Shown piece after piece: positions 2,596-37,950 of a DNA stretch of 50,320 bases (its first letter is position 1; each line of letters begins with the position of its first letter). Under the pieces are notes generated by a model. The model made no database searches, had not been told where the DNA came from, and worked only from the letters and a program-made list of their open reading frames with translations. Both the position numbers and the translations under genes were made by a program. This DNA comes from Candidatus Parcubacteria bacterium (GTDB taxonomy: Bacteria; Patescibacteriota; Minisyncoccia; Phycocordibacterales; JAACPR01), in assembly GCA_009995365.1 (NCBI GenBank), contig JAACPR010000004.1:1-50320 (forward strand), given 5' to 3'.

Positions 2596-3641
2596 AAGAA
2601 AAAATACCAAGTTTTTTTGTTGAGAGTGCTGAAAAGCAAAAAGAAAATGATCCACAACCATATGATGCTATTATTTCAATTGAAGAAGGAAAAGATAAAA
2701 TAGGTCATGTTGCCGACAACTTTGTCTGCAAGGTTTCGGATGAAAATGGGGAGGACACTACTCTTAGAATACCAATTACAATGTCATATTTTAAGAAATC
2801 AGGTAGTGATTTTTGGTACAAAAACCTATATGGTTACAGGGACGGTGTTGATTCAGCAATACAAAATAAAGTAATGAATTATTATGTAGTCTTTGATTCC
2901 ATTTCTAATTTAAGTTTCTTAGCAATGCCAATCGATGAAACCACTGAGGTTATTAATAATGTTGAAAGCCTAGATATGTTTTTAAAAAATGGTAATCCGA
3001 AGGATACAGAGTCACTCCAAGCTTTTTTACAGGAATTTCCAAATACTAAATTCGGCTTAACTGGTTCGAGAACATTCAATAAATTGAATATTGATCATGT
3101 TTCAGATATTGATTTGATTGTCTATGGACCAGATGATTTATCACAAATATTATCTGAAATAGAAGGGAACCCAGACATAAGAGAAAGGGTAGGTATATAC
3201 CCAAACTCCAAGGAAAGAATTACTAGCGACACCGCACATTATATGAAGAAGTTTAATTTATCCGAGTTGGAGGCGTCTATTATTGCAACAAGAAAAAGAA
3301 GATATATTTTCGATTCTGGTATTAAGTTGTCTTTAAATTGTGCATTATCTATGGAAGATTCTTTAAAAGATAATTCACCTATGGCTATTGGTTCCAGAAA
3401 AATTAAGGACATTGCTATAGAAGCAACCGCCTTAGACGTAAAGCTTTCATCGACTCTGCCTAGAAGATTTTCCGTAGATGTCGATGGGCAGGAAATGGAT
3501 GTAGTTAGTTCTATGTGGTCATTAAAAGATCTAATTAGAGCTGGAGATAAAGTTAAGATTGAAGGTGCTGTGAGAGAGAAGGATGGCAATGTCTTTATAT
3601 CCTTAGAAAAAAAGGGTCACATAATTAAACCTCTCGTATAA
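2592..3641 (+). CDS. Pol-beta superfamily nucleotidyltransferase with a beta-rich (OB-like) C-terminus
   Basis: GS...DxD signature in GLTGSRTFNKLNIDHVSDIDLIVYG. The C-terminal stretch GDKVKIEGAVREKDGNVFISLEK looks OB-like. The start overlaps the upstream stop as ATGA. Confidence 0.55.
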   Translation: MKEKIPSFFVESAEKQKENDPQPYDAIISIEEGKDKIGHVADNFVCKVSDENGEDTTLRIPITMSYFKKSGSDFWYKNLYGYRDGVDSAIQNKVMNYYVVFDSISNLSFLAMPIDETTEVINNVESLDMFLKNGNPKDTESLQAFLQEFPNTKFGLTGSRTFNKLNIDHVSDIDLIVYGPDDLSQILSEIEGNPDIRERVGIYPNSKERITSDTAHYMKKFNLSELEASIIATRKRRYIFDSGIKLSLNCALSMEDSLKDNSPMAIGSRKIKDIAIEATALDVKLSSTLPRRFSVDVDGQEMDVVSSMWSLKDLIRAGDKVKIEGAVREKDGNVFISLEKKGHIIKPLV

Positions 3642-3644
3642 TAG

Positions 3645-4511
3645 ATGACAATTAAAAAGATAACTTCAGAAGGAGTTCTAATACAAACAATAAATAACCA
3701 TAAATTTAGTAGTATCGCTCATGTTTATTCATTTAATAATGAGAGATATGTAATAAGAGAAATTGGAAGACAATACTCTTTAAAATCTGCAGATCTTAAA
3801 ATTCTAAAAAAAAATATAAAAAAATATTATAAAATTCTGGCCCAAACAAAAACTTTTAGAGTTCCAAATTTATTTGAATTGGAAATTGATAAAAAAGAGA
3901 ATAAGTTATTACTTCTGACAGAATATTTTGAAAATAATGCTATAAAAAAAGGTTGTGACAACTTGGTTGAGTTTATAAAAATAGCCGAGGTGATTTTTAG
4001 GTTAATTAACAATAAAAATAGTTTTAATCAAAAAGGAAAATTAAATATTTCAGTTGATACTAATCCTGATAACTTTTTTATTGTTGGAAATGATATCGTG
4101 TACAACGATTTTACCCCACCATTGTTTAGACAAACTAATGGTGAGTGGCTTGAGTTTAGAAGATCGGATGAAATGGGACAAATAAAAAAGAATAAGGAAA
4201 TGCGTTATTTTAACCCATCGAATATTCTAATCAATTTCTTAAATAAGGCTAGATTACATTTAACATTCGATGATTACACAAAATTAATTGACTATGTTGT
4301 TAAGGAAAATAGTACACACAAATCTAATAACAGCGTAAAAATTTTGTCTGTCCTATATAGAGAGTTGACAGAAAAAGACTATAATAATGAAAATGAAATT
4401 AATTTCAATAAATATATTACAGAAAGGGATATTTCAAGATTTAAATTGACTTTAAAAAAAGAACTTAAAAACCCAGAACTAACCCAATTATTCAAAATAT
4501 TTAAAAATTAA
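3645..4511 (+). CDS. protein-kinase-like / aminoglycoside-phosphotransferase-like fold protein
   Basis: ISVDTNPDNFFIV resembles the HxDxxxxN catalytic loop. YNDFTPP resembles the DFG/IDF metal loop. LLLLTEYFEN looks like a hinge. All of this is motif-level only. Confidence 0.45.
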   Translation: MTIKKITSEGVLIQTINNHKFSSIAHVYSFNNERYVIREIGRQYSLKSADLKILKKNIKKYYKILAQTKTFRVPNLFELEIDKKENKLLLLTEYFENNAIKKGCDNLVEFIKIAEVIFRLINNKNSFNQKGKLNISVDTNPDNFFIVGNDIVYNDFTPPLFRQTNGEWLEFRRSDEMGQIKKNKEMRYFNPSNILINFLNKARLHLTFDDYTKLIDYVVKENSTHKSNNSVKILSVLYRELTEKDYNNENEINFNKYITERDISRFKLTLKKELKNPELTQLFKIFKN

Positions 4512-7486: not shown

Positions 7487-7562
7487 GTAGATAAGTGCTT
7501 AACAAAAGAGTATTTTAGCGATACTATATAATAACAATTAAATATAAGTGTAAGTACCTAAC

Positions 7563-7729
7563 CCTTAAATTTTATTTAAGGTATGGTCAAAAACGCGACG
7601 AACATAAAAACCCCATCATTAGGGCGTTCGTCGCGTTACATCGGGAAACTGGTGTAGAGGTCCGCAAGGGTCTTCCTAGTGGTGGGATTTTTGCGTATTA
7701 CCTCAATTATTAATTAATCGCGACGAACA
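7563..7729 (+). ncRNA. candidate structured cis-regulatory leader RNA, copy 1
   Basis: Elements in order: 5' hairpin 7563-7581; TATGGTC; segment a 7592-7603; segment b 7606-7620; a' 7626-7637; GGGAAAC 7643-7649; a GCAA-capped hairpin 7657-7674; b' 7678-7692; a repeat of segment a at 7719-7728, directly before ATG 7730. The same architecture, with compensatory changes, occurs at 37951-38179. Confidence 0.6.
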
Positions 7730-8284
7730 ATGAATAAAATAAAGAAATTTTTTACAACCAAAGCAGGTAAAATTACACTAGTAATTTTACTACTTGGTTT
7801 AGGTTTTATTTCGGGTATGGAATATAAAGCATATCAAGTAAGATCTGCAATAAGTGGGGCTTTTGAGGATTTTAGTTTTGGAGAAGTATCGGAAACTAAG
7901 CAAGATAATACAAAGACGATTGCATCTAATGATTTAAATAAAAAAGTAAATTTATCAGTCGAGAAGAAAGGATTTATTACACAATCATACGCAGATTACA
8001 ATACTTTTACTTTCAAATTTGAAAATAATACCGATAAAGATATAGAGGGTGTTCAAGGAACTATAAACTTTATGGACTTGTTTGGGAATTCAATCCAACA
8101 GATTAGACTTTCTTATGATAAGGGAATATTGGCAGGGGAGAGTAAATTATATGATGCCACTGTTGATTATAATCCATTTATCGATACTGATATAAAACTA
8201 AAAAATATTGAACTTTCTAAGATGAAATATGAGTGGGATGTAAATACGATTATTTACTCTGATGGTAGTCAGGAATCGAAATAA
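7730..8284 (+). CDS. membrane-anchored hypothetical protein
   Basis: N-terminal TM helix ITLVILLLGLGFISGM followed by a beta-rich domain. Confidence 0.55.
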   Translation: MNKIKKFFTTKAGKITLVILLLGLGFISGMEYKAYQVRSAISGAFEDFSFGEVSETKQDNTKTIASNDLNKKVNLSVEKKGFITQSYADYNTFTFKFENNTDKDIEGVQGTINFMDLFGNSIQQIRLSYDKGILAGESKLYDATVDYNPFIDTDIKLKNIELSKMKYEWDVNTIIYSDGSQESK

Positions 8285-9108: not shown

Positions 9109-9522
9109 TTAATTTTTATCTTCTTTAAACCAACCAGCTTGCCACTCGAGTATTTTATTTCTTGCTCTCTCAATCTCTAGCTTATTTTTTTCTTGCTCTA
9201 GTTTTTTACGATCACTTCTAATTTTTTCGAAATAATTATTTCTATAAGACGGATGTCTGTGGCCTAACCAATATTTAGTCACACCAATGTCTCCGTTCTT
9301 AATTCCGTTTAGAAGATTATTTTCTGCGTAATCATTTACTCTATCAACACCAAAGAACAAAGCTTTCTCAACTTTATTTTTAAACCGAACGCTTTCTTTT
9401 TGCCATCTATAAATTGAATTTCTAGATATTCCTGCAACATCACAAGCGTGTTCAATAATCGGTGTTTTTTCAAGAGCTTCTAAGAAAGTTTCCTGTATTT
9501 TTTTCTTCCTATCTTTCTTCAT
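9109..9522 (-). CDS. HTH DNA-binding protein (phage small-terminase / transposase-HTH-like)
   Basis: ACDVAGISRNSIYRWQKES is a helix-turn-helix. The gene overlaps the ParB-MTase gene by 14 nt. Confidence 0.5.
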   Translation of the reverse strand: MKKDRKKKIQETFLEALEKTPIIEHACDVAGISRNSIYRWQKESVRFKNKVEKALFFGVDRVNDYAENNLLNGIKNGDIGVTKYWLGHRHPSYRNNYFEKIRSDRKKLEQEKNKLEIERARNKILEWQAGWFKEDKN

Positions 9523-10783
9523 TTGAGTGAATAATTACAGCTTTCTCTCCTGTAAGAGCTTCATACCTCCTTATGATCAAATCACAAAAGATAGGTTCTT
9601 TTTCAATAACATAAGCTCTTCTTTTTAATTCTGTACAGGCAATTAGTGTTGACCCTGATCCTCCAAAAGAATCTAATATGATATCTCCAATTTTAGAACA
9701 CCTCCTGATAGCTTTATGATAAAGATCAACAGGCTTTTGAGTTGCATGATTCATTTGTTTTCCTGAAACTCTTTTTGAAGTCCAAAGATTAATACTGTCT
9801 AATGATTCATTACCATTACCAATATCAGAATTCATAATCTGATTTAAACCATATTCATTTGAAGATAAATAAGGCTTGTTTAATGTACCGTAAATCGCAG
9901 GCTCATAACATTTTGAGAATGCCACACTAGGAGTTTCATTGCTCCCGTTCTTAATCCATAAACAAACACGCCTGTTTCTAATTCCAAACTCACGATAGAG
10001 TGTCTGAAGAATCCAAATCTGTTCTTCTGTATTGAAGTAGAACACATGACAATCTTCATTCGTTACTGTTAAAGCCGTCTTGATATTCTTCCTAAGAAAA
10101 TCAATATATTCTTCTTCAGTTCTGTTGTCCTCAACATTACCTCCAAAATCTCTTTTCCCACCAATACCTTTATTGTAATTTATTTGCAGATTGTAAATTG
10201 GATCTGAAAGAATTAAACTTGTCTTTTCTTTTCCAAACAATCTTTTTAATACTTTAGGATTGTTTGAGTCTTCACAAATCAATTTTGATTTACCAAGTAA
10301 AATTAAATCACCAGTTTTTGTTTTCGGTGTTTTTATTTTCTTGAGTTCAGCTTGTTCGTCGAAATCTGTTTCTTTTAAATCAGGTTCTTTATCAAACAAA
10401 TTTGATAATTCAATTTTGTCGAACCCTGATAGTTCAAGAGTTTCTAATTCGAACCCTTTTAACAAATCGAAATCCCAATCTCCACCAAGCTTGTTAGAAC
10501 CAATCAGATATTGATCTGATTCTTTTTTAGTAAGTTTTCTGTTGGGTACTCGAATATCGATTATTTCTTCTCCTCGTCCCAATAATTTTAAAGCCTTAAT
10601 TCTTTGATGACCTGCTAAAATTCTGCCATCAAAATCTACAGCAGGTATTTCAACTAGATTAAACTTTTTAAGACTTTTTGTAAGATCTGATAATTGCTTA
10701 TCAGAAATTGACCTTGGATTTATTTCTTGGGGAACAAGATCGTTTACCCGTTTTTGAATTGTGCACCAATGTAGTTTTTGCAT
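9509..10783 (-). CDS. ParB-like nuclease domain fused to an N6/N4 DNA methyltransferase
   Basis: ParB-like region RILAGHQRIKAL. MTase motif IV variant ILSDPIYN. Motif I ILDSFGGSGSTLIAC. The ORF is open to 10816, but alignment to the paralog at 33177-34448 favours Met at 10783. Confidence 0.8.
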   Translation of the reverse strand: MQKLHWCTIQKRVNDLVPQEINPRSISDKQLSDLTKSLKKFNLVEIPAVDFDGRILAGHQRIKALKLLGRGEEIIDIRVPNRKLTKKESDQYLIGSNKLGGDWDFDLLKGFELETLELSGFDKIELSNLFDKEPDLKETDFDEQAELKKIKTPKTKTGDLILLGKSKLICEDSNNPKVLKRLFGKEKTSLILSDPIYNLQINYNKGIGGKRDFGGNVEDNRTEEEYIDFLRKNIKTALTVTNEDCHVFYFNTEEQIWILQTLYREFGIRNRRVCLWIKNGSNETPSVAFSKCYEPAIYGTLNKPYLSSNEYGLNQIMNSDIGNGNESLDSINLWTSKRVSGKQMNHATQKPVDLYHKAIRRCSKIGDIILDSFGGSGSTLIACTELKRRAYVIEKEPIFCDLIIRRYEALTGEKAVIIHSNEER

Positions 10784-10869
10784 AATAACAACAATTAATA
10801 TTCCCATAAGGAACATGAATTAATAATTTCATTTTATTTTAGTTGTTACTTATACTCTCTATCTAAGTG

Positions 10870-10975: not shown

Positions 10976-11617
10976 ATGCATAGAATACAAAAACAACTTT
11001 TAGATCTAATAGCTACACATAAGGACTTTGGTTCTTATAGTCTAAGAAAAATGGCTGAAATAATTGGTGTTGAAGGTAGACCTCAGATTGTTAAATATCA
11101 TCTTCGACAGCTAGAAAAGGATAATCTTATTCAGGTTAATCTAGAAGAAGGAGTAATCAATCTTGTAAAAAGAGGAAGAGCTAAAGCATCAGTCAGCCCT
11201 ATTTATTCTTTGCCCGTTGTTGGATCTGCAAATTGTGGTCCTGCTAACATATTTGCTGAAACAAATATTGAAAAATATTTAAAAATTTCATCTTCACTTT
11301 TACCAAGAAATAAGAAAAGTCTATATGCTTTAATTGCTGATGGTAATTCTATGAATAAAGCTGAAGTCGAAGAAGGTAAAGTAATTGAAAATGGAGATTT
11401 TATTTTAGTAGATAAGGATCTACAAAATTATAAAACTGGAGATATTGTTGTTGCAGTTATTGATGGTATGGCAACTATCAAAAGATTTATAGAAGACAAA
11501 AAACATAATAGAATTATTCTAGAGGCTGATTCAACAGAAAAATACATGCCTATTATTATTAACGAAGGTGATGATTTTCTACTAAGTGGGAAAGTTGTTG
11601 GAATTATTAAAGGTTAA
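10976..11617 (+). CDS. lexA: LexA-like repressor (winged HTH plus S24 self-cleaving peptidase)
   Basis: N-terminal wHTH (MAEIIGVEGRPQIVKYHLRQLEKDNLI). Linker VVGSANCGPA with a Cys-Gly at the cleavage position, as in UmuD. Ser nucleophile in ADGNSMN and Lys in ATIKRF. Confidence 0.8.
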   Translation: MHRIQKQLLDLIATHKDFGSYSLRKMAEIIGVEGRPQIVKYHLRQLEKDNLIQVNLEEGVINLVKRGRAKASVSPIYSLPVVGSANCGPANIFAETNIEKYLKISSSLLPRNKKSLYALIADGNSMNKAEVEEGKVIENGDFILVDKDLQNYKTGDIVVAVIDGMATIKRFIEDKKHNRIILEADSTEKYMPIIINEGDDFLLSGKVVGIIKG

Positions 11618-11813: not shown

Positions 11814-12644
11814 ATGACTAAAATACAAGAATATATTAATGAGTTAAAAGAAAAATCTGATAAAAGATTTGATGATTTTGATATTATCGAAATTGATAAC
11901 ATAAATTCCATATTAGATAAAGCTTATATTGATAAACCAACTTGGCTTGGTGGAGATAAAGAATTTGTCTGTCTTTTTATAGATCTTGATAAGTCTTCTA
12001 AAAAGTCTTTTAAGAAACACCCAAAAACAATGGCAAAAATTTATGATTATTTTACACAAAATATAGTAGATGTATTAAATCACCCCACTATTGGTGCAGA
12101 TTATATAGATATAAAAGGTGATGGTGCATTCGGAGTTTTCGGTGGGGACCAAGCTTCATTTAAGGCTTTTTATTGTGCAATAACCTTTAAAACACTTTTT
12201 GAAGAAAAGATTAAAAATAAATTTGGTACTGAGGAGGAATCCTTAGGGTGCAAAATTGGAATACACAAAGATAAGGTACTTGTTAGAAGAATAGGAAAAC
12301 GTGGCGAAGGTAATTATAATGAGGTCTGGGCTGGAAAACTTGTAAATAATGCATCAAAATTAGCGAGTCAAAAAATAGAACCTTCTAACCTAGGAGTTTT
12401 TGATCAAAATCTAATATTTGTCTCTGATAAGGTTTACAAAGATTTTGAAGATAATGAGGAATTCGGTCTATATCGTTGTTGTGATGTTAGTTCTGAAGAA
12501 AGTGTTTCCATTATTAATCAAAAAGTTCCAGTATTTACTAGAGTTGAAGAGCCATCAGAAGAAACATTAGGAGACTGTTTTTATAAGACGGATGTCAGGT
12601 GGTGTAATAAATGTGCTGATAAATATATTGATTTGATTAGATAG
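11814..12644 (+). CDS. class III nucleotidyl cyclase (PycC-like) with a Cys-rich C-terminal tail
   Basis: Metal-binding Asp motifs CLFIDLDKSS and IKGDGAFGVF. Cyclase core KIGIHKDKVLVRRIG...EVWAGKLVNNASKLAS. The tail is RCCD...GDCF...RWCNKC. Confidence 0.75.
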   Translation: MTKIQEYINELKEKSDKRFDDFDIIEIDNINSILDKAYIDKPTWLGGDKEFVCLFIDLDKSSKKSFKKHPKTMAKIYDYFTQNIVDVLNHPTIGADYIDIKGDGAFGVFGGDQASFKAFYCAITFKTLFEEKIKNKFGTEEESLGCKIGIHKDKVLVRRIGKRGEGNYNEVWAGKLVNNASKLASQKIEPSNLGVFDQNLIFVSDKVYKDFEDNEEFGLYRCCDVSSEESVSIINQKVPVFTRVEEPSEETLGDCFYKTDVRWCNKCADKYIDLIR

Positions 12645-12646
12645 AT

Positions 12647-13108
12647 ATGGAAAAACTAATTTTTAAATACAACACAATAACAAATTGGATTAATAATGCT
12701 GACCAAAAAGCCAATATAGCTTTCCCTGTGGAAGTTTTTATTTTGGGTTTTGTTATTAAGGAGCTTCCTGATAAGATTTTGAATGCAAGTTGTGTATATA
12801 CTTATATATTCGTATTTACTCTAATGTTAGGAATCTCGTCTATCTTTTTATTACTTAAAACTATTAGACCTGAGTTAAAAAATAAAGAAGGAAATTCAAA
12901 AATATTTTTTAAAGATATTAATGATAATTATAAAAAAGGAAAAATTGATATATTTGATCTTAATCAAAACGATAAGGATTTTGAAAAAGATTTAGAAAAT
13001 CAAATACTACAGTTATCAGTTGTGTGTACAAAAAAACAAAAAGCTATTTATTGGGTAACTTTATTTATATTCCTACAAATCCTATTGGTCTTTCTTATTT
13101 TTATTTAA
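12647..13108 (+). CDS. small TM protein, candidate Pycsar-type membrane effector
   Basis: The pattern NNADQKANIAF, then TM helices, then LKTIRPEL, then QILQLSVVCTKKQKAIYW and a terminal TM helix resembles the Pycsar-effector / former DUF family layout. This is from memory and is not verified. Confidence 0.5.
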   Translation: MEKLIFKYNTITNWINNADQKANIAFPVEVFILGFVIKELPDKILNASCVYTYIFVFTLMLGISSIFLLLKTIRPELKNKEGNSKIFFKDINDNYKKGKIDIFDLNQNDKDFEKDLENQILQLSVVCTKKQKAIYWVTLFIFLQILLVFLIFI

Positions 13109-14167: not shown

Positions 14168-16351
14168 ATGAACAAAAACAGTATTCCTATCCTGTGGGCA
14201 TCTGCTAGTGTTTCTAGCAACAAAACAACTTTCAATACTCTCAGTAAAGAAGTTGTTGTTGATGCTCCAGGTCCAGTAATCAAACAAATCATCAGTCTCT
14301 GCGATGGTAGTAAATACCTAAAAGAAATTGTTGATTTGCTCGCAAAAGATTGGGATCGTGAATCTATTGAAGGACTTATCAGTGTTCTTATTCAGAAGCA
14401 AGTAATTTTGGATGGTAAAACTCTCGATAAAGAATTCTGGACTTCAATTACCAATCCAATACGTTTCCCGACAAATGTAAGCAACGAGCGTGTTGCTGAG
14501 TTGGTTTTGCAAGCTACTCAAAGACATCGTGAAGAAAGTGTCAAAAAAACTTATCGACCAAGTGTGAGCGATTTGTCGGAACTGATGAGTCACCGAAAAT
14601 CTGTGAGGATTTTTTCAGGAGAATCAATAGGCTTTCAAACAGTTGTTGATCTCTTGTGGAGTGCTTACGGAGAATGTCTGACTAAAGACGGAAAATCTCA
14701 TAGATCAATTCCGTCCGCTGGCGCACTTTACCCTCTGATTATTCATGTTGGCTTGTTTGTAAAAACAGGTGAACTTAAATCTGGAGTCTATCGTGTTGTC
14801 TATGGTCAGGACGGATCAGTTGGGTTCAATCTCGTGTCGACAGATATATTGAGGTTTGCCAGAGCTTTCTTGAGTCCTGCTGGTATTCAAGAAGGGATTC
14901 ATGGAGTTATTACAATTAGTGGTTCGTTTTCAGTATCGAATCAAAAATACGGTAACCGTAGCATGTTGTATGTTCCGATTGAAGCTGGGCATTCTGCTCA
15001 GAATATTCTCTTGGAAGCAACACGGCAAAACGTGGCAACTCTCGAGATTGGAGGGTTTGTAGATGAGCTTTTGGCAAAATCTATTGAACTTCCAGAGGAT
15101 TACCATCCTCTCACTCTGGTGGCTTTTGGTAAGGAAAAAGAGCAATCTTATTCTAAACTAGAGCCATCTATCGAGATCGATTGGGCGATTCCAATGGTAC
15201 AAGGTTATAATCCTGGTTTTGCTATTGCGTCAGTTCGTTTATCAAAAGAACGGATCTGGTCACACGGCAGAGATCCGTCTCCTGAGATGGCTTTGAAAAA
15301 AGCAATTTCAGAAACTAAGGAGTGGACATCTTGTGGGTGTGTTCCCGAACTGACATATTCAACATTTGGTGAGTTGGAAAATGCTATCGATCCTCGAGAG
15401 ATTATTCAATTCCATCAAAGTCAGTATCGGATTAAAGGTTTTCCATTTGTGTCGTTTGATGAAAGTGTGAGTTACGGATGGACTAAGGGGTATGATTTAG
15501 CAGGTAAAGAATTTTATATCTGTGCTGATCAGGTTTATTTCCCTTATTTTCCTGACACACCCTGTTTTTGCTACTCGAATTCTTCGGGTTGTGCGGCACA
15601 TCCAGATCGACAGACTGCGATTGAGACAGGAACGCTTGAGTTGGTTGAGCGTGACGCTTTCATCAATTCATATTTCTGCAAACTCGATAGACCTTATGTC
15701 GATACAGATACGCTTCCTGATTCAATTGAGAAGCGAATCCAAGACTTGGAGTCTGCAGGGTTTAAAGTTTGGGTCATTGACCACTCTCTTGATCTAGCAC
15801 CAGTTGTGTTTGTCTTTGCACAAAACGAAGACATTCACTATTCTACTTGTGCTTCGTGTTCGAGTTTCGATATTGAACACGCTGTCAGTCATGCACTTAT
15901 GGAGGTTGAGGCTTCGGTCTTACACCGACTTCAGCACGGAAAGCCTGACGAGATTAAACCAAATGAGGTTATCTGGCCAAACGATCATGGTAAGCTTTAT
16001 GGACAAAAGCAATTTTTCCAGAGGGCTGACTTTTTGGTCGAAAGTTCAAAGAGGATCTCTTTCCGAGAAATCGGTGGTTTCTCAGCTCTGACTTGGTCAG
16101 AACTCCTCGATCGTTTTGAGAATAAGGGTTGGAAGCACCTAGTGGTTCCACTCAAACTCTCTGATGATTATGGTGGCAACGGTGATTCGAATATCGTTCG
16201 TGTAATTGTTCCCGGGACTGTTCAGATGACCTTTGGTTATCGACAAGAACCTGCGGGCATGAAACGACTCTACGACATTTCCGAAAGGTTTGGTAATGGA
16301 AGAAGGCTGTCTTATGGGCAGTTAACTAAATTTCCTCATCCTTTCGAGTGA
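14168..16351 (+). CDS. fused RRE-like / SagB-type FMN dehydrogenase / YcaO cyclodehydratase
   Basis: - N-terminus: PGPVIKQIISLCDGSKYLKEIVDLL is PqqD/RRE-like.
- SagB motifs: RKSVRIFSG, IPSAGALYPL, NQKYGNRSMLY (Lys-Tyr), EAGHSAQNILLEA.
- YcaO motifs: SNSSGCAAHPDRQTAIETGTLELVERDAF and the C-terminal FPHPFE (PxP tail). Confidence 0.85.
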   Translation: MNKNSIPILWASASVSSNKTTFNTLSKEVVVDAPGPVIKQIISLCDGSKYLKEIVDLLAKDWDRESIEGLISVLIQKQVILDGKTLDKEFWTSITNPIRFPTNVSNERVAELVLQATQRHREESVKKTYRPSVSDLSELMSHRKSVRIFSGESIGFQTVVDLLWSAYGECLTKDGKSHRSIPSAGALYPLIIHVGLFVKTGELKSGVYRVVYGQDGSVGFNLVSTDILRFARAFLSPAGIQEGIHGVITISGSFSVSNQKYGNRSMLYVPIEAGHSAQNILLEATRQNVATLEIGGFVDELLAKSIELPEDYHPLTLVAFGKEKEQSYSKLEPSIEIDWAIPMVQGYNPGFAIASVRLSKERIWSHGRDPSPEMALKKAISETKEWTSCGCVPELTYSTFGELENAIDPREIIQFHQSQYRIKGFPFVSFDESVSYGWTKGYDLAGKEFYICADQVYFPYFPDTPCFCYSNSSGCAAHPDRQTAIETGTLELVERDAFINSYFCKLDRPYVDTDTLPDSIEKRIQDLESAGFKVWVIDHSLDLAPVVFVFAQNEDIHYSTCASCSSFDIEHAVSHALMEVEASVLHRLQHGKPDEIKPNEVIWPNDHGKLYGQKQFFQRADFLVESSKRISFREIGGFSALTWSELLDRFENKGWKHLVVPLKLSDDYGGNGDSNIVRVIVPGTVQMTFGYRQEPAGMKRLYDISERFGNGRRLSYGQLTKFPHPFE

Positions 16352-18729: not shown

Positions 18730-20064
18730 TTATTTAATAAATATTTTCTTATCTCTCAACACCAACTCACTTCTCAGATTTTTTAATAATTCTCGCTTCT
18801 CGTATATAGGTCTAGTTCTTAAAATGTGTTTCGCATAATTTCTGATATCGATTTCTTTAATTTTAACTTTTTCGTTAACTTCTTTTCCTAAAACAGATTT
18901 TTGAAATTCATTGTGTGATTGTATTGTTTCTTTGATTTTGTCTTTCATTCCGATTTTATCTAAATCTACGGTATCTAATACCTCTGCAATCTGATCAATC
19001 AAAGCTTCTTCTCGAATATGTTCACATTTGCAATCTTTATCGTGAAATTTTGTACATCTGTAATATACATAACGAGCTTGAGTTCCATCTTTTAATTTTT
19101 TAAATTTCTCATCGGCAGTTATTCCTGATCCACACAATCCGCATTTAATCATTTTAGTGAATGCAAACTCTTTGTTTTGAGTTCGTACTTGTTGATCGGC
19201 TGTAATTTGTTTTTGAACTTGTAAGTATAAGTCTTTGGTGACAATCGGTTCATGTTTTCCTTTATACCAATTATCGCTATTTTTAGGATATTCAAATTCT
19301 CCGTAATAGAAGGTGCTTTTTAAAATTATGTAAATATTGCTCAAGGTTAAAGGTTTTCCTCTTCTGGTTGTGAATCGAATATCATCCCGAAGCCAATAGA
19401 ATACTTTACGTCCAGACCAACCATTGTAGGCTACTTTTTCATATATTTGTTTAATAATGTCATATCTTTGTTCATCCTTGATCACTTCACACTTTTTATT
19501 TCTATCAGGGTTAGGAAGATAACCAGTAGGTGGTACAGATGGCCATAACCCCATCTCACATCTCGCTCTCAGTCCTCTTTTTACATTCACTACTTTATTA
19601 TCATTCTCTAGTTTAGCTTGTGAGCCTAGAATCATTAATAGGAACTTTTCATTTGGATTGTTGGTAAATTTCTGTCCGTAGGTTCGAATTTCAATGAGTA
19701 GCTTTTGATCCATTAAATCTACAACCGAACCAAGGTCTCCTGCGTTTCTAGATAACCTATCTGGTGCCCAAGTTAATATTCCATTAAATTTACCTTCGCG
19801 AACTTCTTGGAGTAGTTCATTATAGACTGGTCGCTTACCAACTTCTTTGGATGAATGTGATTCTCTTTTTATTTCCACAATTTCTAGCCCTTCACGCTCG
19901 GCAAGAGTAGTCATTTCTCGAACCTGAGATTCTATTGATAAAGCTTGCTTATCCTCTTGCTCGGTTGATTTTCGAGCGTAAAGACAGTATTTAATTGGTA
20001 CTTGGTCTTGTAATATTTTCGATTTCTCATCAGAAGTCACTTGTAGCGGGTTTGTTATTTGCAT
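18730..20064 (-). CDS. large serine recombinase
   Basis: Resolvase catalytic region YARKSTEQEDKQALSIESQ...RLSRN, a recombinase domain, and a zinc ribbon CGLCGSG...YYRCTKF. Confidence 0.9.
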   Translation of the reverse strand: MQITNPLQVTSDEKSKILQDQVPIKYCLYARKSTEQEDKQALSIESQVREMTTLAEREGLEIVEIKRESHSSKEVGKRPVYNELLQEVREGKFNGILTWAPDRLSRNAGDLGSVVDLMDQKLLIEIRTYGQKFTNNPNEKFLLMILGSQAKLENDNKVVNVKRGLRARCEMGLWPSVPPTGYLPNPDRNKKCEVIKDEQRYDIIKQIYEKVAYNGWSGRKVFYWLRDDIRFTTRRGKPLTLSNIYIILKSTFYYGEFEYPKNSDNWYKGKHEPIVTKDLYLQVQKQITADQQVRTQNKEFAFTKMIKCGLCGSGITADEKFKKLKDGTQARYVYYRCTKFHDKDCKCEHIREEALIDQIAEVLDTVDLDKIGMKDKIKETIQSHNEFQKSVLGKEVNEKVKIKEIDIRNYAKHILRTRPIYEKRELLKNLRSELVLRDKKIFIK

Positions 20065-20175
20065 ACAAACATTAATGACGCAACTGTATTGAGGAGTCTA
20101 GGGCTATTTTGACTCGTGAAAGTTGGTAACTAATCTTCTTTATTTTAGGCTTATTTCGTGCTATTTTTATAATAA

Positions 20176-23100
20176 ATGGAAAAAATAATAGATAATAAAA
20201 AAACTAGGATAATTGATGTCTTAAAGAGTGGTATTAAAAAAGATTCAAAATTATCTATTATCTCTGCTTACTTCACAATTTATGGTTTTGATAAATTAAA
20301 AGACCAGTTAGAAAATATCGACAGTTTAAAATTTCTATTTATTGAACCAACTTTTATAAAAGAAAAAGAGGAAAAAAGAGAATTTTATATTAATCGTAAA
20401 AATAGAGAGAAACAGATTTCTGGTACAGAATATGAAATTAAATTAAGGAACGAACTTAGACAATCTGAAATTGCAAAAGAATGTGCAGAATGGATTCGTG
20501 AAAAAGTTGAATTTAAGTCTCTCAAAAAAACAGATACTTCGAGTGCTAGAACAATTAATGTTCAGAATTCAGACGGATCAAATTTCGTTATAAATGGTCA
20601 AATGGATTTTACCGCATCAGGTTTAGGAGTGACTCAATCCAAAAAGTATGAAATACACAGCTATTCAGATGAAAAAAATGCAACCACCGAAGCACTAAGT
20701 TGGTTTGATGAAATTTGGGATAACGAAGAATTGGCAGAAGAAGTCAAAGATGAAGTTCTGAAAAATATTGAAACAATTTATAATGAAAATACACCTGAAT
20801 TTATTTACTTTGTAACTCTTTATAATATTTTTAGAGAATATTTAGATGACTTAGCAGAAGAAAACATAATTAAGCCAAAAACAGGATTTGCTGAAACAAA
20901 AGTCTGGAATAAGCTATATCAATTTCAAAAGGATGGAGTTATGGGTGCAATCAGTAAATTAGAAGATCATAATGGTTGTATTATTGCTGACAGTGTTGGA
21001 CTTGGAAAAACTTTCGAGGCCTTGGCGGTTATTAAATATTACGAATTAAGAAATCACCGAGTTTTAGTTTTATCCCCTAAAAAATTGCGGGATAACTGGA
21101 ATATGTACAGGATGAATGATGTAAGAAATATTCTGTCAGAAGATAGATTTGGTTACGATATCCTAAATCATACAGATCTAAGTCGTGAGAAAGGTATGTC
21201 TGGTGATATAAACATTGAAACAGTAAATTGGGGTAATTACGATCTAATTGTAATTGACGAGTCTCACAACTTTAGAAATAACGATCCACGAAAAGGAAAG
21301 AAAACTCGGTATCAAAAATTAATGGAAGATATTATTAAGAGTGGAGTTAAAACGAAGGTTTTGATGCTGTCTGCTACTCCTGTTAATAATAAAATGACCG
21401 ATTTAAAAAATCAGGTCGCCTTTATAACAGAGGGAAATGATAGGGCACTTTCTGAATCTGGAATTCCTAGTATTCAAGAAACTTTAAGGGTTGCTCAATT
21501 AATTTTTAATAAATGGCAAGACAAACCCATAGCAGAAAGAAAACTAGAGGACTTACTAAAGTCATTTAATATTAATTACTTTAAGTTGTTAGACACCCTA
21601 ACCATTGCCAGATCTAGAAAACACATAGAAAAATATTATGATCTAACAGAGATAGGTAAATTTCCAGAAAGATTAAAACCCGAAAATAAAAAATCTGGAG
21701 TCGATCTTAAAAACGAATTTTCTGATTTTAATGAAATAAATAATACAATTAGTAAATTAAAACTTTCTATATATTCTCCACTTCAGTATGTTTTACCTAA
21801 TAAAGTTAAATATTACGAAGAAAAATACGATATGGTTGTTAATGAAGGCCAATCTAGTTTTAAACAATCTGATAGAGAGAAAAACATTGTAAATCTAATG
21901 AGAGTTAATATTCTAAAAAGACTTGAAAGTTCTGTTTATTCATACAATTTAACTCTAAATAAAATTGATTCAAAGATAACCAATGTATTAAATAAAATTG
22001 AAAACATTAATGAAAATGATTTTTTCGAGACAGACTCAGAAGATCAAGAAGAAAGTATTGACGGAGATGACGAACAACTGGAATCAATGATGATTGGCGA
22101 CAAAATTAGAGTCTCATTGAAGGATATGGATTTAGTTAGGTGGAAAGAAGATTTAGAAGATGATCATCAGAAATTTCAGGAACTAATTAATCAGTCAAAA
22201 ACTATTACACCAAAAAGAGATGAAAAATTGGATACATTAAAGAAAATTATTACAGATAAAATTAAAAATCCAATAAATGACGGTAATAATAAAATTTTGA
22301 TTTTTTCTGCCTACGCTGATACTGCAAATTACCTCTACGATAATTTATCTGATTGGATCAAAGAAGAATTTAAAATTCATACTGCTCTCGTTACTGGTGG
22401 AGGTTCGAACAAGGTGACATCAAAATTAATTCCTAATCATTTTGATTCAGTACTAACTAACTTCTCACCAATCTCAAAAGAAAGAGACAAGATTTATCCT
22501 GATCTTAAGGATGAAATTGATATTTTGATTGCTACAGATTGTATTTCAGAAGGTCAAAACTTGCAGGACTGCGATTGTTTAATTAATTACGATATTCACT
22601 GGAACCCAGTTAGGATTATTCAACGGTTCGGTCGAATTGATCGTATTGGTTCTAAAAATGACAGAGTTAAGTTAATTAACTTTTGGCCCGATATGGAACT
22701 CGAATCATATATTAAATTGGAGCAAAGAGTTAGAGGTAGAATGATGCTTCTAAATACCTCTGCTACTGGAGAAGAAGATTTAATTAATGAATCTGAACAA
22801 GAAGTAATGAATGATATTGAGTACCGTAAAAATCAACTAATGAAGCTTCAAGAGGAAATAGTTGACCTAGAAGACGTGTCAGGAAACATTTCGATTACAG
22901 ACTTAACTATGAATGATTTCAGAATGGATTTGGCTTCGTATATGAAAGAACACAAAGACGAGTTAGAAAATGCACCTCTTGGCATGTATGCGGTTGCTGA
23001 TAAAAAATTACTTGGAGAAAATATTGAATCTGGAATAATTTTTGCTCTAAAACAGGCGAATTTTTCGGAATTAGAATCTAAAGAAGTAAATGCTATTCAT

Positions 23101-23433
23101 CCATATTATATGGTTTATATTCAAAATGATGGTCATGTAAAATATGGTTATACTCAAGCGAAATATGTTTTAGATATTTTTAAAAAATTATGTAATGGAG
23201 TTGATGATGTAAATAAAGATTTAACAAAAATATTCAATTCTGAAACAGATGATGCAAGAGATATGAAAGAGCAATCTAGATTATTAGAAAAAGCCGTTCA
23301 AAATATAATTGGTAAAAAACAAGAGACAGGAGCGTCTGAATTATTTAGTCTTGGAAAAACAACAATTGCCCAACAAAGCTTATTAAATGGTCTAGATGAT
23401 TTTGAATTAGTGTCATTCTTAATTATCAAATAA
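20176..23433 (+). CDS. SNF2-family helicase with an N-terminal PLD-like region
   Basis: Motif I DSVGLGKT, motif II VIDESHNFRN, motif III LSATPVNN, motif VI QRFGRIDRIGS. Confidence 0.9.
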   Translation: MEKIIDNKKTRIIDVLKSGIKKDSKLSIISAYFTIYGFDKLKDQLENIDSLKFLFIEPTFIKEKEEKREFYINRKNREKQISGTEYEIKLRNELRQSEIAKECAEWIREKVEFKSLKKTDTSSARTINVQNSDGSNFVINGQMDFTASGLGVTQSKKYEIHSYSDEKNATTEALSWFDEIWDNEELAEEVKDEVLKNIETIYNENTPEFIYFVTLYNIFREYLDDLAEENIIKPKTGFAETKVWNKLYQFQKDGVMGAISKLEDHNGCIIADSVGLGKTFEALAVIKYYELRNHRVLVLSPKKLRDNWNMYRMNDVRNILSEDRFGYDILNHTDLSREKGMSGDINIETVNWGNYDLIVIDESHNFRNNDPRKGKKTRYQKLMEDIIKSGVKTKVLMLSATPVNNKMTDLKNQVAFITEGNDRALSESGIPSIQETLRVAQLIFNKWQDKPIAERKLEDLLKSFNINYFKLLDTLTIARSRKHIEKYYDLTEIGKFPERLKPENKKSGVDLKNEFSDFNEINNTISKLKLSIYSPLQYVLPNKVKYYEEKYDMVVNEGQSSFKQSDREKNIVNLMRVNILKRLESSVYSYNLTLNKIDSKITNVLNKIENINENDFFETDSEDQEESIDGDDEQLESMMIGDKIRVSLKDMDLVRWKEDLEDDHQKFQELINQSKTITPKRDEKLDTLKKIITDKIKNPINDGNNKILIFSAYADTANYLYDNLSDWIKEEFKIHTALVTGGGSNKVTSKLIPNHFDSVLTNFSPISKERDKIYPDLKDEIDILIATDCISEGQNLQDCDCLINYDIHWNPVRIIQRFGRIDRIGSKNDRVKLINFWPDMELESYIKLEQRVRGRMMLLNTSATGEEDLINESEQEVMNDIEYRKNQLMKLQEEIVDLEDVSGNISITDLTMNDFRMDLASYMKEHKDELENAPLGMYAVADKKLLGENIESGIIFALKQANFSELESKEVNAIHPYYMVYIQNDGHVKYGYTQAKYVLDIFKKLCNGVDDVNKDLTKIFNSETDDARDMKEQSRLLEKAVQNIIGKKQETGASELFSLGKTTIAQQSLLNGLDDFELVSFLIIK

Positions 23434-23434
23434 A

Positions 23435-24175
23435 ATGGAAGATAAAATCATAAAAATATTTAATTTAGAAAAAGAGGTAGTTCAAAATAGAAAAATCAAA
23501 AGTATTTTTTATGAACACGAAAAATTTAATGCAGAAAAGAAAAGATTATTTGATGATGCAGTAGAAAATATAAAATTAGTGGGGCTATTTAATGACGACA
23601 CAATTAACATTCCAAAATATAAAGACGAAGAGTTTTTATATGAAGAGATATATTTAATCCATATAGAGTTAAAAGATAAAAAGCAATATACTCGAGTTGT
23701 GAGTGTAATACATGAATTTATAGAAAATCCTGTAATTTTAGTTTTAAGTTATGAAAAAGAGATTCAGTTATCTGGTTCCATAACTAGAATTAATAAAAAA
23801 ACCCAAGAAAAAGGAATAACAGAAGATCTATTTCAAACACCGTGGATCAGTATCGATGATGAATCAGTAAAATATTTAGATACCAAGAAATATTCATACG
23901 AATCATTAAAAAAGTTTTATGAAGAATATCTGCGTGTAATGTTATGTTTTAATTTAGTTGAAATTATTGGAGAGTTTAAATATGTACCAAAATACGCTAT
24001 ACTAGACCTAAGAGTAATTATTGAAAAATACGCTTTATTAAAGGCTCAGATTGACTCTCTGAAGCAAAACCAGAAGCAATCAGTAGGTTTTGGAGATAAA
24101 GTAGAAATTCAAGAAAAAATTATTAAATTACAGAAGGAATTAGAAATCATTAAACAACAAGTAAAAGAATTATGA
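23435..24175 (+). CDS. DUF4391-like protein
   Basis: The position between the SNF2 helicase and the methylase, plus size and composition, fit DUF4391. The assignment is from memory of that gene neighbourhood, not from a motif. Confidence 0.4.
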   Translation: MEDKIIKIFNLEKEVVQNRKIKSIFYEHEKFNAEKKRLFDDAVENIKLVGLFNDDTINIPKYKDEEFLYEEIYLIHIELKDKKQYTRVVSVIHEFIENPVILVLSYEKEIQLSGSITRINKKTQEKGITEDLFQTPWISIDDESVKYLDTKKYSYESLKKFYEEYLRVMLCFNLVEIIGEFKYVPKYAILDLRVIIEKYALLKAQIDSLKQNQKQSVGFGDKVEIQEKIIKLQKELEIIKQQVKEL

Positions 24176-26067
24176 AAAAACTAGACGGCAAATCAAAAGA
24201 TATCTTAGATGATAATGTTTCAAAAATAAGAGAAATGTTTCCAGAAGTATTCGAAGAGGGGAAAATAGATTTTGAATATCTTAGAAAAATACTTGGGGAT
24301 GCGGTTGATTCTAACAATGAAAAATATTCTTTTACTTGGAATGGAAAATCCGATGCTATCAAAACTGCTCTAAAACCTACCACTGCAACATTGCGGCCTG
24401 ATAAAGAATCTAGTAAAAACTGGGATACTACAGAAAACTTATTTATAGAAGGGGACAATTTAGAAGTATTAAAGGTTCTTCAAGATTCTTATAGGAATAA
24501 AGTAAAGATGATTTATATTGATCCTCCGTATAACACTGGTCACGACTTTGTTTATAATGACAAGTTTAATGATACTGTAGAGGATTATAAAGAGAGAACA
24601 GAGCAGGCAATGATGTCTAATGCAGATTCAAGTGGTAGATATCATACTAATTGGTTGAATATGATGTACCCAAGACTTCGCTTGGCTAGAAATCTGTTAA
24701 AAGATGATGGGGCTATTTTTATTTCCATTGATGACAATGAGGTTGCCAACTTAAGAAAAATTTGTGATGAGATTTTTGGTGAAAATAATTTTGTCAACGC
24801 TATAGCTGTTAAAATGAGTGAAACTTCTGGGGTTAAAATGAGCCATTCAGATAATAGATTACCTAAAATAAAAGAATATGTATTAATTTATTCTAAAAAT
24901 TATAAAAAAATTAATTTTAATTCAGTTAAATTACATAAAAGTGATGAACCTAAAAAAATAGAAAAATATCTTAAATATTATTCCAAAATTATAGAAAACC
25001 TAAATGACGATCCATCTAAATGGTCTATTATTGACATAAAAAAATATATTGAAAAAAATAGTATAGAAATAAAAGATGATAGTGAGTTAAATGAATTTAA
25101 ATTTAAGAATGCTAATAGGATTGTTTATAGAACAAATAATAAGGCTTTTGAAGGTTTAAAATTTGATAATCCTATTAATAAAGTTATTTCTTCTACGGGG
25201 ATTGAGTATATATGGTGGGAAGGTAAACAAATGCTTTTTCTTTCTGATTATTTAGAAGAAGGTTTGTGTGATCTATGGACACATATTTCAACTATTAATA
25301 TAAACAAAGAAAGTCATGGGATACCTACTTACATCAATGGACAAAAACCCAGGGAATTAATAGAGTTATGTGCAAGTTTAGTCTTAGATCAAGATGACCT
25401 AGCGCTTGATTTTTTTGCCGGATCAGGTACAACGGCAGATGCTATTTTGAAATTCAATACGGATAATGATAGAAAAAATAAATTTATAATGGTTCAAATA
25501 CCAGAAAAGATCGAAACAACATCTGGAATGAATTCTAAGACAAAAAACACAACAAAACAGTTAATGAGTTTTCTAGATGAAATTAATAGGCCACATTTCT
25601 TAACAGAGATTGGTAAAGAAAGAATTAAAAGATCTAATAATAAATTTAAACAACCATTTGAAGAATGTAGAGGTTTTAAAGTTTTTAAATTAGATTCAAC
25701 AAATCTAACTCAATGGGATTCACAAACAGAAGATTTAGGAAAAACTCTTGAAGAATCAATTAATTCTGCAAAATCAGATAGAACACAGGAAGATGTCCTG
25801 TATGAAGTATTATTGAAATATGGAATAAACCTAACGACTCCTATATTAGAAGAAGAAATAAATGATAAAAAAATATTTTCTATCGCGGGAGGGTTTTTAC
25901 TAGTCTGTTTAGAGAAAGATGTTGATTTAGATACAATTTCAAAAATTGCAGAAAAGAAACCTGAAAGAGTTGTATTTTATGATCACGGATTTAAAGATGA
26001 TATGACGAAACTTAATGCAGAACAGACTCTTAAAAAGGCTGGTGTTGAGGATATAAGAATTATTTAA
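24172..26067 (+). CDS. type III Mod-like N6/N4 DNA methyltransferase
   Basis: Motif IV MIYIDPPYNTG precedes motif I LDFFAGSGTTADA (beta-class order). The start overlaps the upstream stop as ATGA. Confidence 0.85.
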   Translation: MKKLDGKSKDILDDNVSKIREMFPEVFEEGKIDFEYLRKILGDAVDSNNEKYSFTWNGKSDAIKTALKPTTATLRPDKESSKNWDTTENLFIEGDNLEVLKVLQDSYRNKVKMIYIDPPYNTGHDFVYNDKFNDTVEDYKERTEQAMMSNADSSGRYHTNWLNMMYPRLRLARNLLKDDGAIFISIDDNEVANLRKICDEIFGENNFVNAIAVKMSETSGVKMSHSDNRLPKIKEYVLIYSKNYKKINFNSVKLHKSDEPKKIEKYLKYYSKIIENLNDDPSKWSIIDIKKYIEKNSIEIKDDSELNEFKFKNANRIVYRTNNKAFEGLKFDNPINKVISSTGIEYIWWEGKQMLFLSDYLEEGLCDLWTHISTININKESHGIPTYINGQKPRELIELCASLVLDQDDLALDFFAGSGTTADAILKFNTDNDRKNKFIMVQIPEKIETTSGMNSKTKNTTKQLMSFLDEINRPHFLTEIGKERIKRSNNKFKQPFEECRGFKVFKLDSTNLTQWDSQTEDLGKTLEESINSAKSDRTQEDVLYEVLLKYGINLTTPILEEEINDKKIFSIAGGFLLVCLEKDVDLDTISKIAEKKPERVVFYDHGFKDDMTKLNAEQTLKKAGVEDIRII

Positions 26068-26069
26068 TT

Positions 26070-26432
26070 ATGGATAAAGAAATTCAGAAATTTATATTAG
26101 AATCTCTAAAAAAAAGAAATTATTTAGATCTTGAAAAGACTATAGTTGAAGATGTAAGTAAAACAGTATGGAAAGAGAAAAAACCAATACCAGCAGACAA
26201 AATTGTGAAGCATAATGCTAAAATGTTAAATGATAAAGGGTTGATACATTTTGTGGATAACCAAGTAGGACGATACTATCAGATGACATTACAAGGTAAA
26301 AGGACTTTTGATCCTTGGCACAAAAAAGCTTGGTATTGGATTTTATATGATAAAAATAATCTTTATACGATATTGTCTGTTTTAATATCTTTAACTGCAA
26401 TAATTGTGTCGGTAATTGCACTAAATAAATAA
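26070..26432 (+). CDS. small protein with a C-terminal TM anchor
   Basis: The C-terminal helix is LYTILSVLISLTAIIVSVIAL. The N-terminus may be wHTH-like. It lies between the mod-like and res-like genes with 2-nt and 1-nt gaps. Confidence 0.4.
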   Translation: MDKEIQKFILESLKKRNYLDLEKTIVEDVSKTVWKEKKPIPADKIVKHNAKMLNDKGLIHFVDNQVGRYYQMTLQGKRTFDPWHKKAWYWILYDKNNLYTILSVLISLTAIIVSVIALNK

Positions 26433-26433
26433 A

Positions 26434-37715: not shown

Positions 37716-37950
37716 CCCATTGTTTGGTACATTCAACCTTTAACTGCGACACTTTCGTTAAACCCTTCTAAATGGGTTCTCCACTCAAGTCGTTTTCTAT
37801 GACGATTATTTAAAAGAGTATTAACTTTTAGGCTTAGAGTACGTAATACCTACCCTGACAAGCTTCGCAAGGTCCGAATATTAAGCTATAACATAACTAG
37901 AATTTTAGCCTTGATAATGCTAAAATTCACATTGACAATAAAGATCTAAA

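Follow-up and report, generated by a model that had tools for sequence, protein, structure and literature searches.

The 50,320-nt stretch of a Candidatus Parcubacteria contig analysed here (JAACPR010000004.1, positions 1 to 50,320, hereafter the window) carries two structured RNAs, each upstream of a protein-coding gene, and both belong to the LOOT RNA family (Rfam RF03000). We propose that each is a cis-acting, bistable leader with its own promoter that controls the translation start of accessory, moron-like cargo in a region derived from a phage or an integrative element, a reading to which we assign a probability of about 0.6. At its centre is one strand, a′, which can pair either with segment a, just upstream of it, or with a second copy of a (the a-repeat) that lies immediately before the start codon of the cargo gene.

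A reading of the DNA letters without database searches (the sequence-only reading) had described the two loci as sharing one architecture and had recognised no known riboswitch class in them. The core is in fact a known family: copy 1 matches the LOOT model with 80.5 bits (7555–7675) and copy 2 with 49.9 bits (37943–38064), each over model positions 1–121 of 121 and against a gathering score of 46.4. The core fold of that family is the same as the one drawn from the letters, not a different one, and both copies fit its consensus helices, namely P1 with an internal loop, a long P2, a GAAA hairpin and a capped P4. A permissive scan (E ≤ 0.5) gave no further Rfam match in the window and no weaker LOOT copies. 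Direct reading of the sequence finds all the segments of copy 1 where they had been placed before, with GGTATGGTC listed after the 5′ hairpin and before a.

Features of copy 1, all on the + strand:
7499–7532: promoter-like region (TTAACA, 17 nt, TACTAT, with an overlapping TATAAT at 7527–7532), from a promoter scan
7535–7545: conserved 5′ motif ACAATTAAATA, the likely transcript start, just 3′ of TATAAT and outside the Rfam model
7556–7587: P1, the 5′ hairpin, from the Rfam LOOT alignment
7592–7603: segment a, AACGCGACGAAC, the 5′ strand of helix P2, from sequence reading and the Rfam alignment
7606–7620: segment b, in the P2 loop, with two options: the pairing with b′ and the local fold of the Rfam structure
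7626–7637: segment a′, GTTCGTCGCGTT, the candidate switch strand, with a or the a-repeat as its partner
7638–7655: P3, the GAAA-tetraloop hairpin, with GGGAAAC at 7643–7649
7657–7674: P4, the GCAA-capped hairpin, from the Rfam alignment
7678–7692: segment b′ with the T-run, partner of b, outside the Rfam model
7719–7728: a-repeat, CGCGACGAAC, 1 base before the ATG (7719–7729 as CGCGACGAACA, reaching the start codon), the competitor strand for a′
7730: start codon ATG of the copy 1 cargo

The same order of elements is found at copy 2 (37943–38182), as had been claimed, and its sequences are unrelated to those of copy 1 in every helix.

Features of copy 2, all on the + strand:
37911–37939: promoter-like site (TTGATA, 17 nt, GACAAT), from a promoter scan
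37943–38064: LOOT core, P1 to P4 (Rfam match, 49.9 bits)
37983–37992: segment a, CCGCTACAGT
about 37996–38009: segment b
38016–38025: segment a′
38034–38040: GGGAAAC of P3
38049–38064: P4, with a UUCG cap
38070–38084: segment b′, GGTGAGGAGCCTTTT
38089–38104: b-repeat (AAGGCTC...CTCAC), which would form a hairpin with b′ in the alternative fold
38167–38177: a-repeat, CCGCTACAGTA, ending 2 nt before the ATG
38180: start codon ATG of the copy 2 cargo

LOOT was reported from metagenomes as one of 224 candidate RNAs (Weinberg et al. 2017, PMC5737381); it has since drawn a remark on 28 unusual "cross-covariations" in connection with CaCoFold (PMC7657543), and it is named in connection with R-scape curation (PMC11701678). 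The literature searched yielded the discovery paper, the Rfam papers and the CaCoFold remark, and no functional study of LOOT. The Rfam model stops at P4, and b′, the T-run and the a-repeat lie outside the described family. For these, for the b-repeat, for the 5′ motif ACAAYTGAATA and for the Patescibacteria and phage context, we found no description in the accessible literature, which did not include the 2017 supplement. Both copies are best described as a known orphan family plus conserved extensions.

How far these extensions are conserved can be judged from relatives. When viral contigs and a set of genomes, one for each species, were scanned with a sequence pattern, about 110 loci proved to have the LOOT architecture; some of them are cited below by our own L numbers. 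The search pattern fixes the receptor-like and GGGAAAC motifs, and all family frequencies given here refer to the subset so defined. Eight of the pattern-found relatives, with nine LOOT matches between them, scored 56–82 bits when rescanned with Rfam. A structure-blind MAFFT alignment of 105 LOOT sequences (A1) was used for covariation, and across these relatives the consensus helices are 87% paired, as against 69% in shuffles and 38–50% when slid.

Helix a:a′ comprises 9–14 contiguous pairs in all of the roughly 110 LOOTs, with sequences that are unrelated from one locus to another. P3 (helix 8 in A1) is 98% paired, with five of its seven pairs changed on both sides, and the P4 cap is interchangeably GNRA or UUCG across the family. 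The interleaved b:b′ pairing claimed by the sequence-only reading proves strongly covarying once relatives are aligned: it appears in A1 as helix 7, with 15 pairs of which 14 are changed on both sides and 90.8% of cells paired, and the duplex energy of cognate b/b′ pairs averages −24.6 kcal/mol versus −15.5 kcal/mol for non-cognate pairs (p = 1.6e-19). It is thus a genuine conserved helix, and in copy 1 it pairs 14 of 15 positions, including two G·U. Nearly all members conserve a G-rich b′ with CTTTTTG after it, and b:b′ takes up essentially the whole loop of a:a′, with the A-run of b pairing with the T-run, again with some covariation. Segment b is also self-complementary, so that every member has alternatives of the kind "two hairpins versus one duplex".

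A tertiary contact may stabilize the core. The internal loop of P1 reads CCUAAC/UAUGG in copy 1 and CCUAAA/CAUGG in the family consensus, and we take it to resemble the 11-nt GAAA-tetraloop receptor (CCUAAG...UAUGG). By this analogy the GAAA of P3 is probably docked in the P1 loop as a clamp. The strongly conserved positions of the Rfam consensus are mainly CCUAA/GCAUGG, GAAA, an A-rich linker and GU, most of which fit such a clamp. The receptor-like columns are also invariant in A1, where most of them were fixed by the search pattern, as was the GAAA of P3, which is conserved in the Rfam consensus itself.

The three-way complementarity of a, a′ and the a-repeat, first seen in the sequence-only reading, is real, and about 20 independent LOOT loci show it again with a sequences that have nothing in common. 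Because these sequences are wholly different between loci, the triple amounts to three-way covariation. Downstream, 16/112 loci have an exact a-repeat of 9 nt or more, versus 1/112 for a reversed-a control (p = 1.6e-4), and in 21/109 loci the duplex energy of a′ with the 36 nt that surround the start codon ranks at ≤ 0.02 versus non-cognate partners. About 18% of loci, both window copies included, carry an a-repeat near the ATG; it ends 0–13 nt short of the ATG, and in L153 the two overlap. In the window, the 10-mer CGCGACGAAC occurs exactly three times, as a, as the complement of a′ and as the repeat, when dinucleotide shuffles hold a mean of 0.15 matches and 0/100 of them reached three. Counted by locus, the a-segment is present exactly three times at either copy, where chance would give about 0.1. 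A search for extra copies of a or of the a-repeat elsewhere in the 50-kb window found none.

The differences between a and its repeat are concentrated at wobble pairs. The repeat departs from a at 7/9 of the G·U positions of a:a′ versus 10/177 of the Watson–Crick positions (Fisher p = 4.6e-7), and at six of the seven differing wobble positions it is the Watson–Crick partner of a′. Immediately 3′ of the helix, the identity between a and the repeat is 33%, which is the chance level. This wobble-to-Watson–Crick pattern, together with identity that stops at the helix end, argues for RNA pairing and not for duplication, and it is evidence of selection on the a′:a-repeat pairing. The two competing states are also close in energy, lying within about 3 kcal/mol of each other in constrained folds of 13/20 loci. 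A repeat of b, positioned after the T-run and pairing with b′, is present in about 25–30% of loci independently of the a-repeat, and copy 2 is among them (rank 0.011 versus non-cognate partners). In the loci with a b-repeat the alternative state is a fully nested junction, in which a′:a-repeat encloses P3, P4 and b′:b-repeat. The triple compensation is not traceable within one gene lineage, as a metagenome scan gave three relatives of the copy 2 gene, two without LOOT and one with its 5′ end outside the match.

Both leaders fold more stably than shuffled sequences (z = −4.9 for copy 1 and −5.7 for copy 2), and in the unconstrained minimum free energy (MFE) structure of the full copy 2 leader a′ is paired with the a-repeat. 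We also observe in copy 2 that CUAUGCC of the start-codon region (38178–38184) and GGCAUGG of the 3′ P1 strand (37963–37969) are complementary. The copy 2 MFE structure lengthens the a′:a-repeat helix through this pairing, the equivalent of which is absent from copy 1.

LOOT is, as predicted from promoter-like sequences, a promoter-proximal leader. An extended −10 element (gtgnTAnaaT) lies family-wide about 6 nt before ACAAYTGAATA, and the motif itself, in the form ACAAYTRAATA with at most two mismatches, occurs 11–35 nt before P1 in 75/101 LOOT loci, with a background of 0.044 per 45 nt; it was likewise seen upstream of P1 in L016 and L043–L117. The motif is likely a transcript start or an operator, and its position with the extended −10 before P1 suggests that LOOT starts its own transcript. 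Pairing of ACAAYTGAATA with the region after LOOT was tested and gave no signal. At the other end, LOOT almost always lies 50–100 nt upstream of a co-oriented ORF (about 110 loci); measured from GGGAAAC, the next co-oriented ATG ORF starts at a median of 79 nt (interquartile range 68–92), and within 110 nt in 87% of 109 loci. The a-repeat had been said to stand where a Shine–Dalgarno (SD) sequence would normally lie. There is nothing special in this, since SD-like motifs precede only 8% of ORFs overall and 3/31 long ORFs in the window (window and L043–L160), making an SD-less start ordinary here. The a-repeat as a special replacement for the SD was accordingly rejected, SD motifs being rare throughout these genomes.

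In the mechanism we propose, the leader would exist in two states. State A would be the LOOT fold, with P1, a:a′ (P2), P3 probably docked in the P1 loop, and P4, while b would be folded locally or paired with b′; the a-repeat and the start codon would be single-stranded and the gene translatable, so that state A would be the ON state. In state B, a′ would pair with the a-repeat and, in copy 2, b′ would pair also with the b-repeat. This would close a multi-branch junction, burying 10–12 nt right before the AUG and blocking initiation. The triple of a, a′ and a-repeat would act as a locus-specific "address" held wholly inside a portable promoter-leader module. As to what flips the switch, our guess is co-transcriptional folding into state A followed by refolding or processing to state B; a protein or a physical signal could do the same.

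Several observations weigh against this proposal. About 80% of LOOT loci lack an a-repeat, and once the strong cases are removed there is no residual complementarity between a′ and the start region. With so many members lacking the repeat, the family's general function is not start-site sequestration, and the general role of LOOT must be something else, for example attenuation, stabilisation or action as a stable small RNA (sRNA), with the a-repeat as an optional translational layer. The translational-switch logic of the sequence-only reading fits; the start-proximal repeat, which only about 18% of the family carry, is an optional add-on and not what defines the family's mechanism. In copy 1, moreover, a:a′ is retained in the unconstrained MFE structure and a b-repeat is not seen. 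The true ensemble also goes beyond two states, and a nested energy model takes no account of the interleaving of b:b′ with a:a′. As b:b′ spans the whole P2 loop, including the A-run and the T-run, the full helix (15–19 bp) looks, from its geometry, sterically incompatible or only partly compatible with a closed a:a′, and the two appear mutually exclusive. We infer both which way the regulation runs and that transcription passes through the T-run. Rfam assigns RF03000 the type "sRNA", that is, a trans-acting RNA, and the relatives were gathered by a sequence pattern, which confines their frequencies to that subset.

A more ambitious form of the proposal, about which we are doubtful, would make LOOT a phage-borne, modular, "addressable" riboregulator specific to Patescibacteria. 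The clamped pseudoknot would sense a global cue, which may be a protein, Mg2+, temperature, infection or the state of episymbiont attachment, and would flip the mimic strands to gate superinfection-exclusion or defence cargo, with the hypervariable triple keeping co-resident copies orthogonal. If true, this would be a new signal-responsive class of leader in Patescibacteria, for which no native riboregulator is described in the literature searched.

Several alternatives compete with the bistable leader. One, which we judge unlikely, follows the Rfam type and takes LOOT as a discrete, stable sRNA ending at b′ and the T-run, with a′ serving in trans as a locked antisense seed against the a-repeat at the start site of the cargo mRNA, in the manner of a type I antitoxin or of an addiction system for small membrane proteins of potential toxicity; LOOTs without a nearby repeat would then have targets elsewhere in the genome. 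The near-universal G-rich b′ followed by CTTTTTG would suit such a 3′ end, many cargo proteins are short, single-pass and hydrophobic (including Imm-like proteins of 61–69 aa), and hypervariable a "addresses" would give orthogonality among copies, of which there are two in the window and two in L043. The distance from the T-run to the ATG is however only about 20–40 nt, which usually leaves no room for a second promoter and, in most loci, none for a promoter of the cargo. The T-run also pairs with the A-run of b, and a simple scan of the + strand (G+C-rich hairpin of at least 5 pairs, 3–8 nt loop, T-run) called no terminator at 7678–7698 or 38070–38090. Furthermore, the seed is buried in a perfect helix of 10–12 bp, the window cargos of 184 and 354 aa are not toxin-sized, and, as noted above, the 50-kb window offers no other copy of a or of the a-repeat as a target. 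The combination typical of type I toxin–antitoxin systems, a hydrophobic toxin of less than about 60 aa with an antisense gene, was not found, nor was an antisense promoter/terminator pair at the window loci.

It is improbable, in our view, that LOOT is instead a transcription attenuator or a 5′ stabiliser, in which the P2 extension, b:b′ and a local hairpin of b′ decide T-run termination or mRNA decay, and the a-repeat is a secondary, dispensable reinforcement that has by itself little effect on regulation. Such a role would account for b:b′ and the T-run being common to all members when the a-repeat is not, for the alternative pairings that a self-complementary b offers in every member, and for a b-repeat that occurs independently of the a-repeat. 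Against it, the T-run is of similar length in the a-repeat class and in the rest (3.8 versus 4.2, p = 0.12), with no significant division of labour between them; no canonical terminator is called; and the wobble-to-Watson–Crick pattern shows the a-repeat itself to be selected for pairing.

That the repeats are a DNA-level feature is very improbable. Such a feature would be an attachment (att)-like or palindromic site for the neighbouring serine recombinase, or the target-site duplication that a small element leaves when it inserts; the wobble pattern and the RNA-specific motifs led us to reject it. A gene for a large serine recombinase does lie 0.1–0.5 kb from LOOT in about 30% of loci, a-b-a′ is a palindrome of about 45 bp, and L029 and L043 have a second element with the same a core 3.2 kb away, yet the helices are hypervariable while strictly complementary, with G·U tolerated, which is a signature of RNA and not of a protein-binding site, the GAAA tetraloop, the interchangeable GNRA and UUCG caps and the receptor-like loop are RNA motifs, the a-repeat identity stops at the helix end, and no recombinase adjoins the window copies, the nearest being at 18730–20064. 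Serine integrases, in addition, need only a 2-bp crossover and are not known to leave duplications of 10–12 bp.

A metabolite riboswitch is not supported either. Nothing points to a small-molecule ligand: the conserved nucleotides are mainly GAAA- and receptor-like, no ligand pocket is obvious from the sequence, and the downstream genes are functionally heterogeneous. They share no one pathway, consisting of 62 singletons and unrelated families, and the copy 2 gene has homologs without LOOT.

Returning to the bistable leader, its cargo is best understood from the genomic context. The genes that follow the two copies in the window are these:
7730–8284, + strand: copy 1 cargo ORF, 184 aa, with an N-terminal transmembrane segment
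8308–9090: ORF after the copy 1 cargo, with a match to phrog_17239 (a phage protein family) and an HSDR_N-like domain
9109–9522: terminase small-subunit-like gene after the copy 1 cargo
9509–10816: ParB-methylase gene
38180–39244, + strand: copy 2 cargo ORF, 354 aa, with a match to the C-terminal endonuclease domain of NucS that is weak and below threshold

The copy 2 cargo has a homolog in L082 whose alignment with it begins at residue 1, which confirms the start codon. The LOOT in front of this homolog differs in its a and lacks the repeat, and other homologs have no LOOT. Since homologs of the same gene are found behind another LOOT or behind none, the promoter-leader module appears portable, and the repeat belongs to the module and not to the gene. 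Across the family most of the ORFs code for small membrane proteins, some of which are nuclease- or immunity-like, and the downstream proteins are diverse: several families of small N-terminally anchored or zinc-ribbon membrane proteins, the Imm-like proteins, secreted WWNP proteins and nuclease-like proteins. An N-terminal hydrophobic stretch is present in 60/109, and some relatives have cargo ORFs of 59–80 aa.

The neighbours of LOOT include genes of mobile elements. A large serine recombinase is encoded at 31/105 loci, mostly divergently and immediately upstream of LOOT, while terminase small-subunit-like, ParB-methylase and terminase large-subunit genes are found convergent and downstream of it, the terminase large subunit at 9 of the 105 loci. 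L021 (10473–12947) has a tRNA gene followed by a large serine recombinase, LOOT and cargo in this order, which is typical of a tRNA-integrated element with LOOT and its cargo as the first internal module. No tRNA gene was found in the window. On the recombinase and terminase neighbours, the order in L021 and the phage genes of the window, the LOOT-led genes look like moron or superinfection-exclusion-type cargo of prophages or integrative elements of the Candidate Phyla Radiation (CPR). As expected of morons, they lie by phage or integration genes and have a promoter of their own, which is a predicted one.

LOOT-bearing genomes are overwhelmingly metagenome-assembled genomes of Patescibacteria (CPR), from Parcubacteria/Paceibacteria, Saccharibacteria, Microgenomates, Gracilibacteria, Peregrinibacteria, WWE3 and Dojkabacteria. 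Identical a "alleles" are found in distant CPR lineages with different cargo, as with CGTAAGCCAC in L045, L070, L083, L097 and L150, and the allele CGATCAAGCA is common to L047 and L077. Such recurrence is consistent with horizontal spread of the module. In two loci, L029 (462–560, 3685–3809) and L043 (405–510, 3618–3738), a full LOOT is preceded, at a distance of 3.2 kb, by a shorter LOOT-like RNA that carries the same a. The two forms agree in the 5′ hairpin, in GGCATGGTC and in the a core CCATCCAAG but not in the 3′ half, and the full LOOT of each pair has no ORF behind it. L043 also has two convergent LOOT RNAs, at 3618–3738 (+) and 4295–4412 (−), with about 560 nt between them.

Other parts of the window are of note in their own right. 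A second gene with a ParB N-terminal domain and an N6/N4 methylase lies at 32441–34448, in addition to the one at 9509–10816; both resemble the family found downstream of LOOT cargo, and the presence of two suggests two phage-derived segments in the window. A protein with an adenylate/guanylate-cyclase domain followed by a small multi-transmembrane protein (11814–13108) adjoins a LexA-like S24 peptidase repressor (10976–11617) and looks like a defence pair of the Pycsar type or of the cyclic-oligonucleotide-based anti-phage signalling (CBASS) type. At 18730–29424, a large serine recombinase (18730–20064, − strand) lies by a cluster of SNF2-helicase, DNA methylase and ResIII/endonuclease genes that resembles a type III or DISARM-like restriction island. 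Finally, a YcaO cyclodehydratase fused to a nitroreductase domain and followed by a DUF2268 protease (14168–16351) is a possible locus for an azoline or for a ribosomally synthesized and post-translationally modified peptide.

LOOT has been one of many orphan structured RNAs without an assigned role, and the evidence presented here recasts it as a leader with extra conserved helices, carried by phage-like elements across many Patescibacteria lineages, with a defined subclass that has a competitor strand at the start codon. For ultrasmall, SD-poor and hard-to-culture bacteria and their phages, this provides a concrete mechanism, open to testing with mutants, by which accessory, exclusion or defence genes may be controlled. 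Being compact, self-contained and apparently portable, the module could also serve as an expression-control part in the emerging genetics of Saccharibacteria.

Both copies have the elements of the LOOT family as described (RF03000, PMC5737381): P1, an a:a′ helix that extends inward, a hairpin with GAAA, and P4 with its cap. The Rfam model does not cover b′ and the T-run, the a-repeat just before the start codon, the upstream motif ACAAYTGAATA or the b-repeat of copy 2. Translational riboswitch platforms such as thiM TPP and SAM-II-type pseudoknots are alike in that the 3′ strand of a helix, here a′, pairs alternatively with the initiation region; LOOT is also pseudoknotted and compact, with a putative tertiary clamp, and members of one family differ after a core fold, as in LOOT, where some have an a-repeat and most do not. 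Unlike those platforms, LOOT has no apparent conserved ligand pocket, its downstream genes are unrelated and the element that would be sequestered is not an SD. In the trp leader attenuator (1:2, 2:3 and 3:4 pairings), one strand likewise picks an upstream or a downstream partner, a choice which entails that the two partners resemble each other, whereas LOOT lacks a leader peptide and its output helix lies at the start codon instead of forming a terminator. The hok/sok-type refolding of mRNAs in type I toxin–antitoxin systems uses successive, mutually exclusive long-range pairings by mimic strands (tac, ucb, dcb and fbi) to gate small membrane proteins on mobile elements, and LOOT would presumably differ from it in that no antisense gene was found, the cargo is often large and non-toxic-looking, and the compact tertiary fold is not a 5′–3′ fold-back. 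We know of no report that prophage morons share a common structured leader RNA. The closeness of LOOT to prophage morons and superinfection-exclusion genes such as ltp and sie is instead one of organization: a self-contained unit of promoter, leader and gene, set next to the integrase and with the rest of the phage on its other side, that encodes small membrane or immunity-like proteins.

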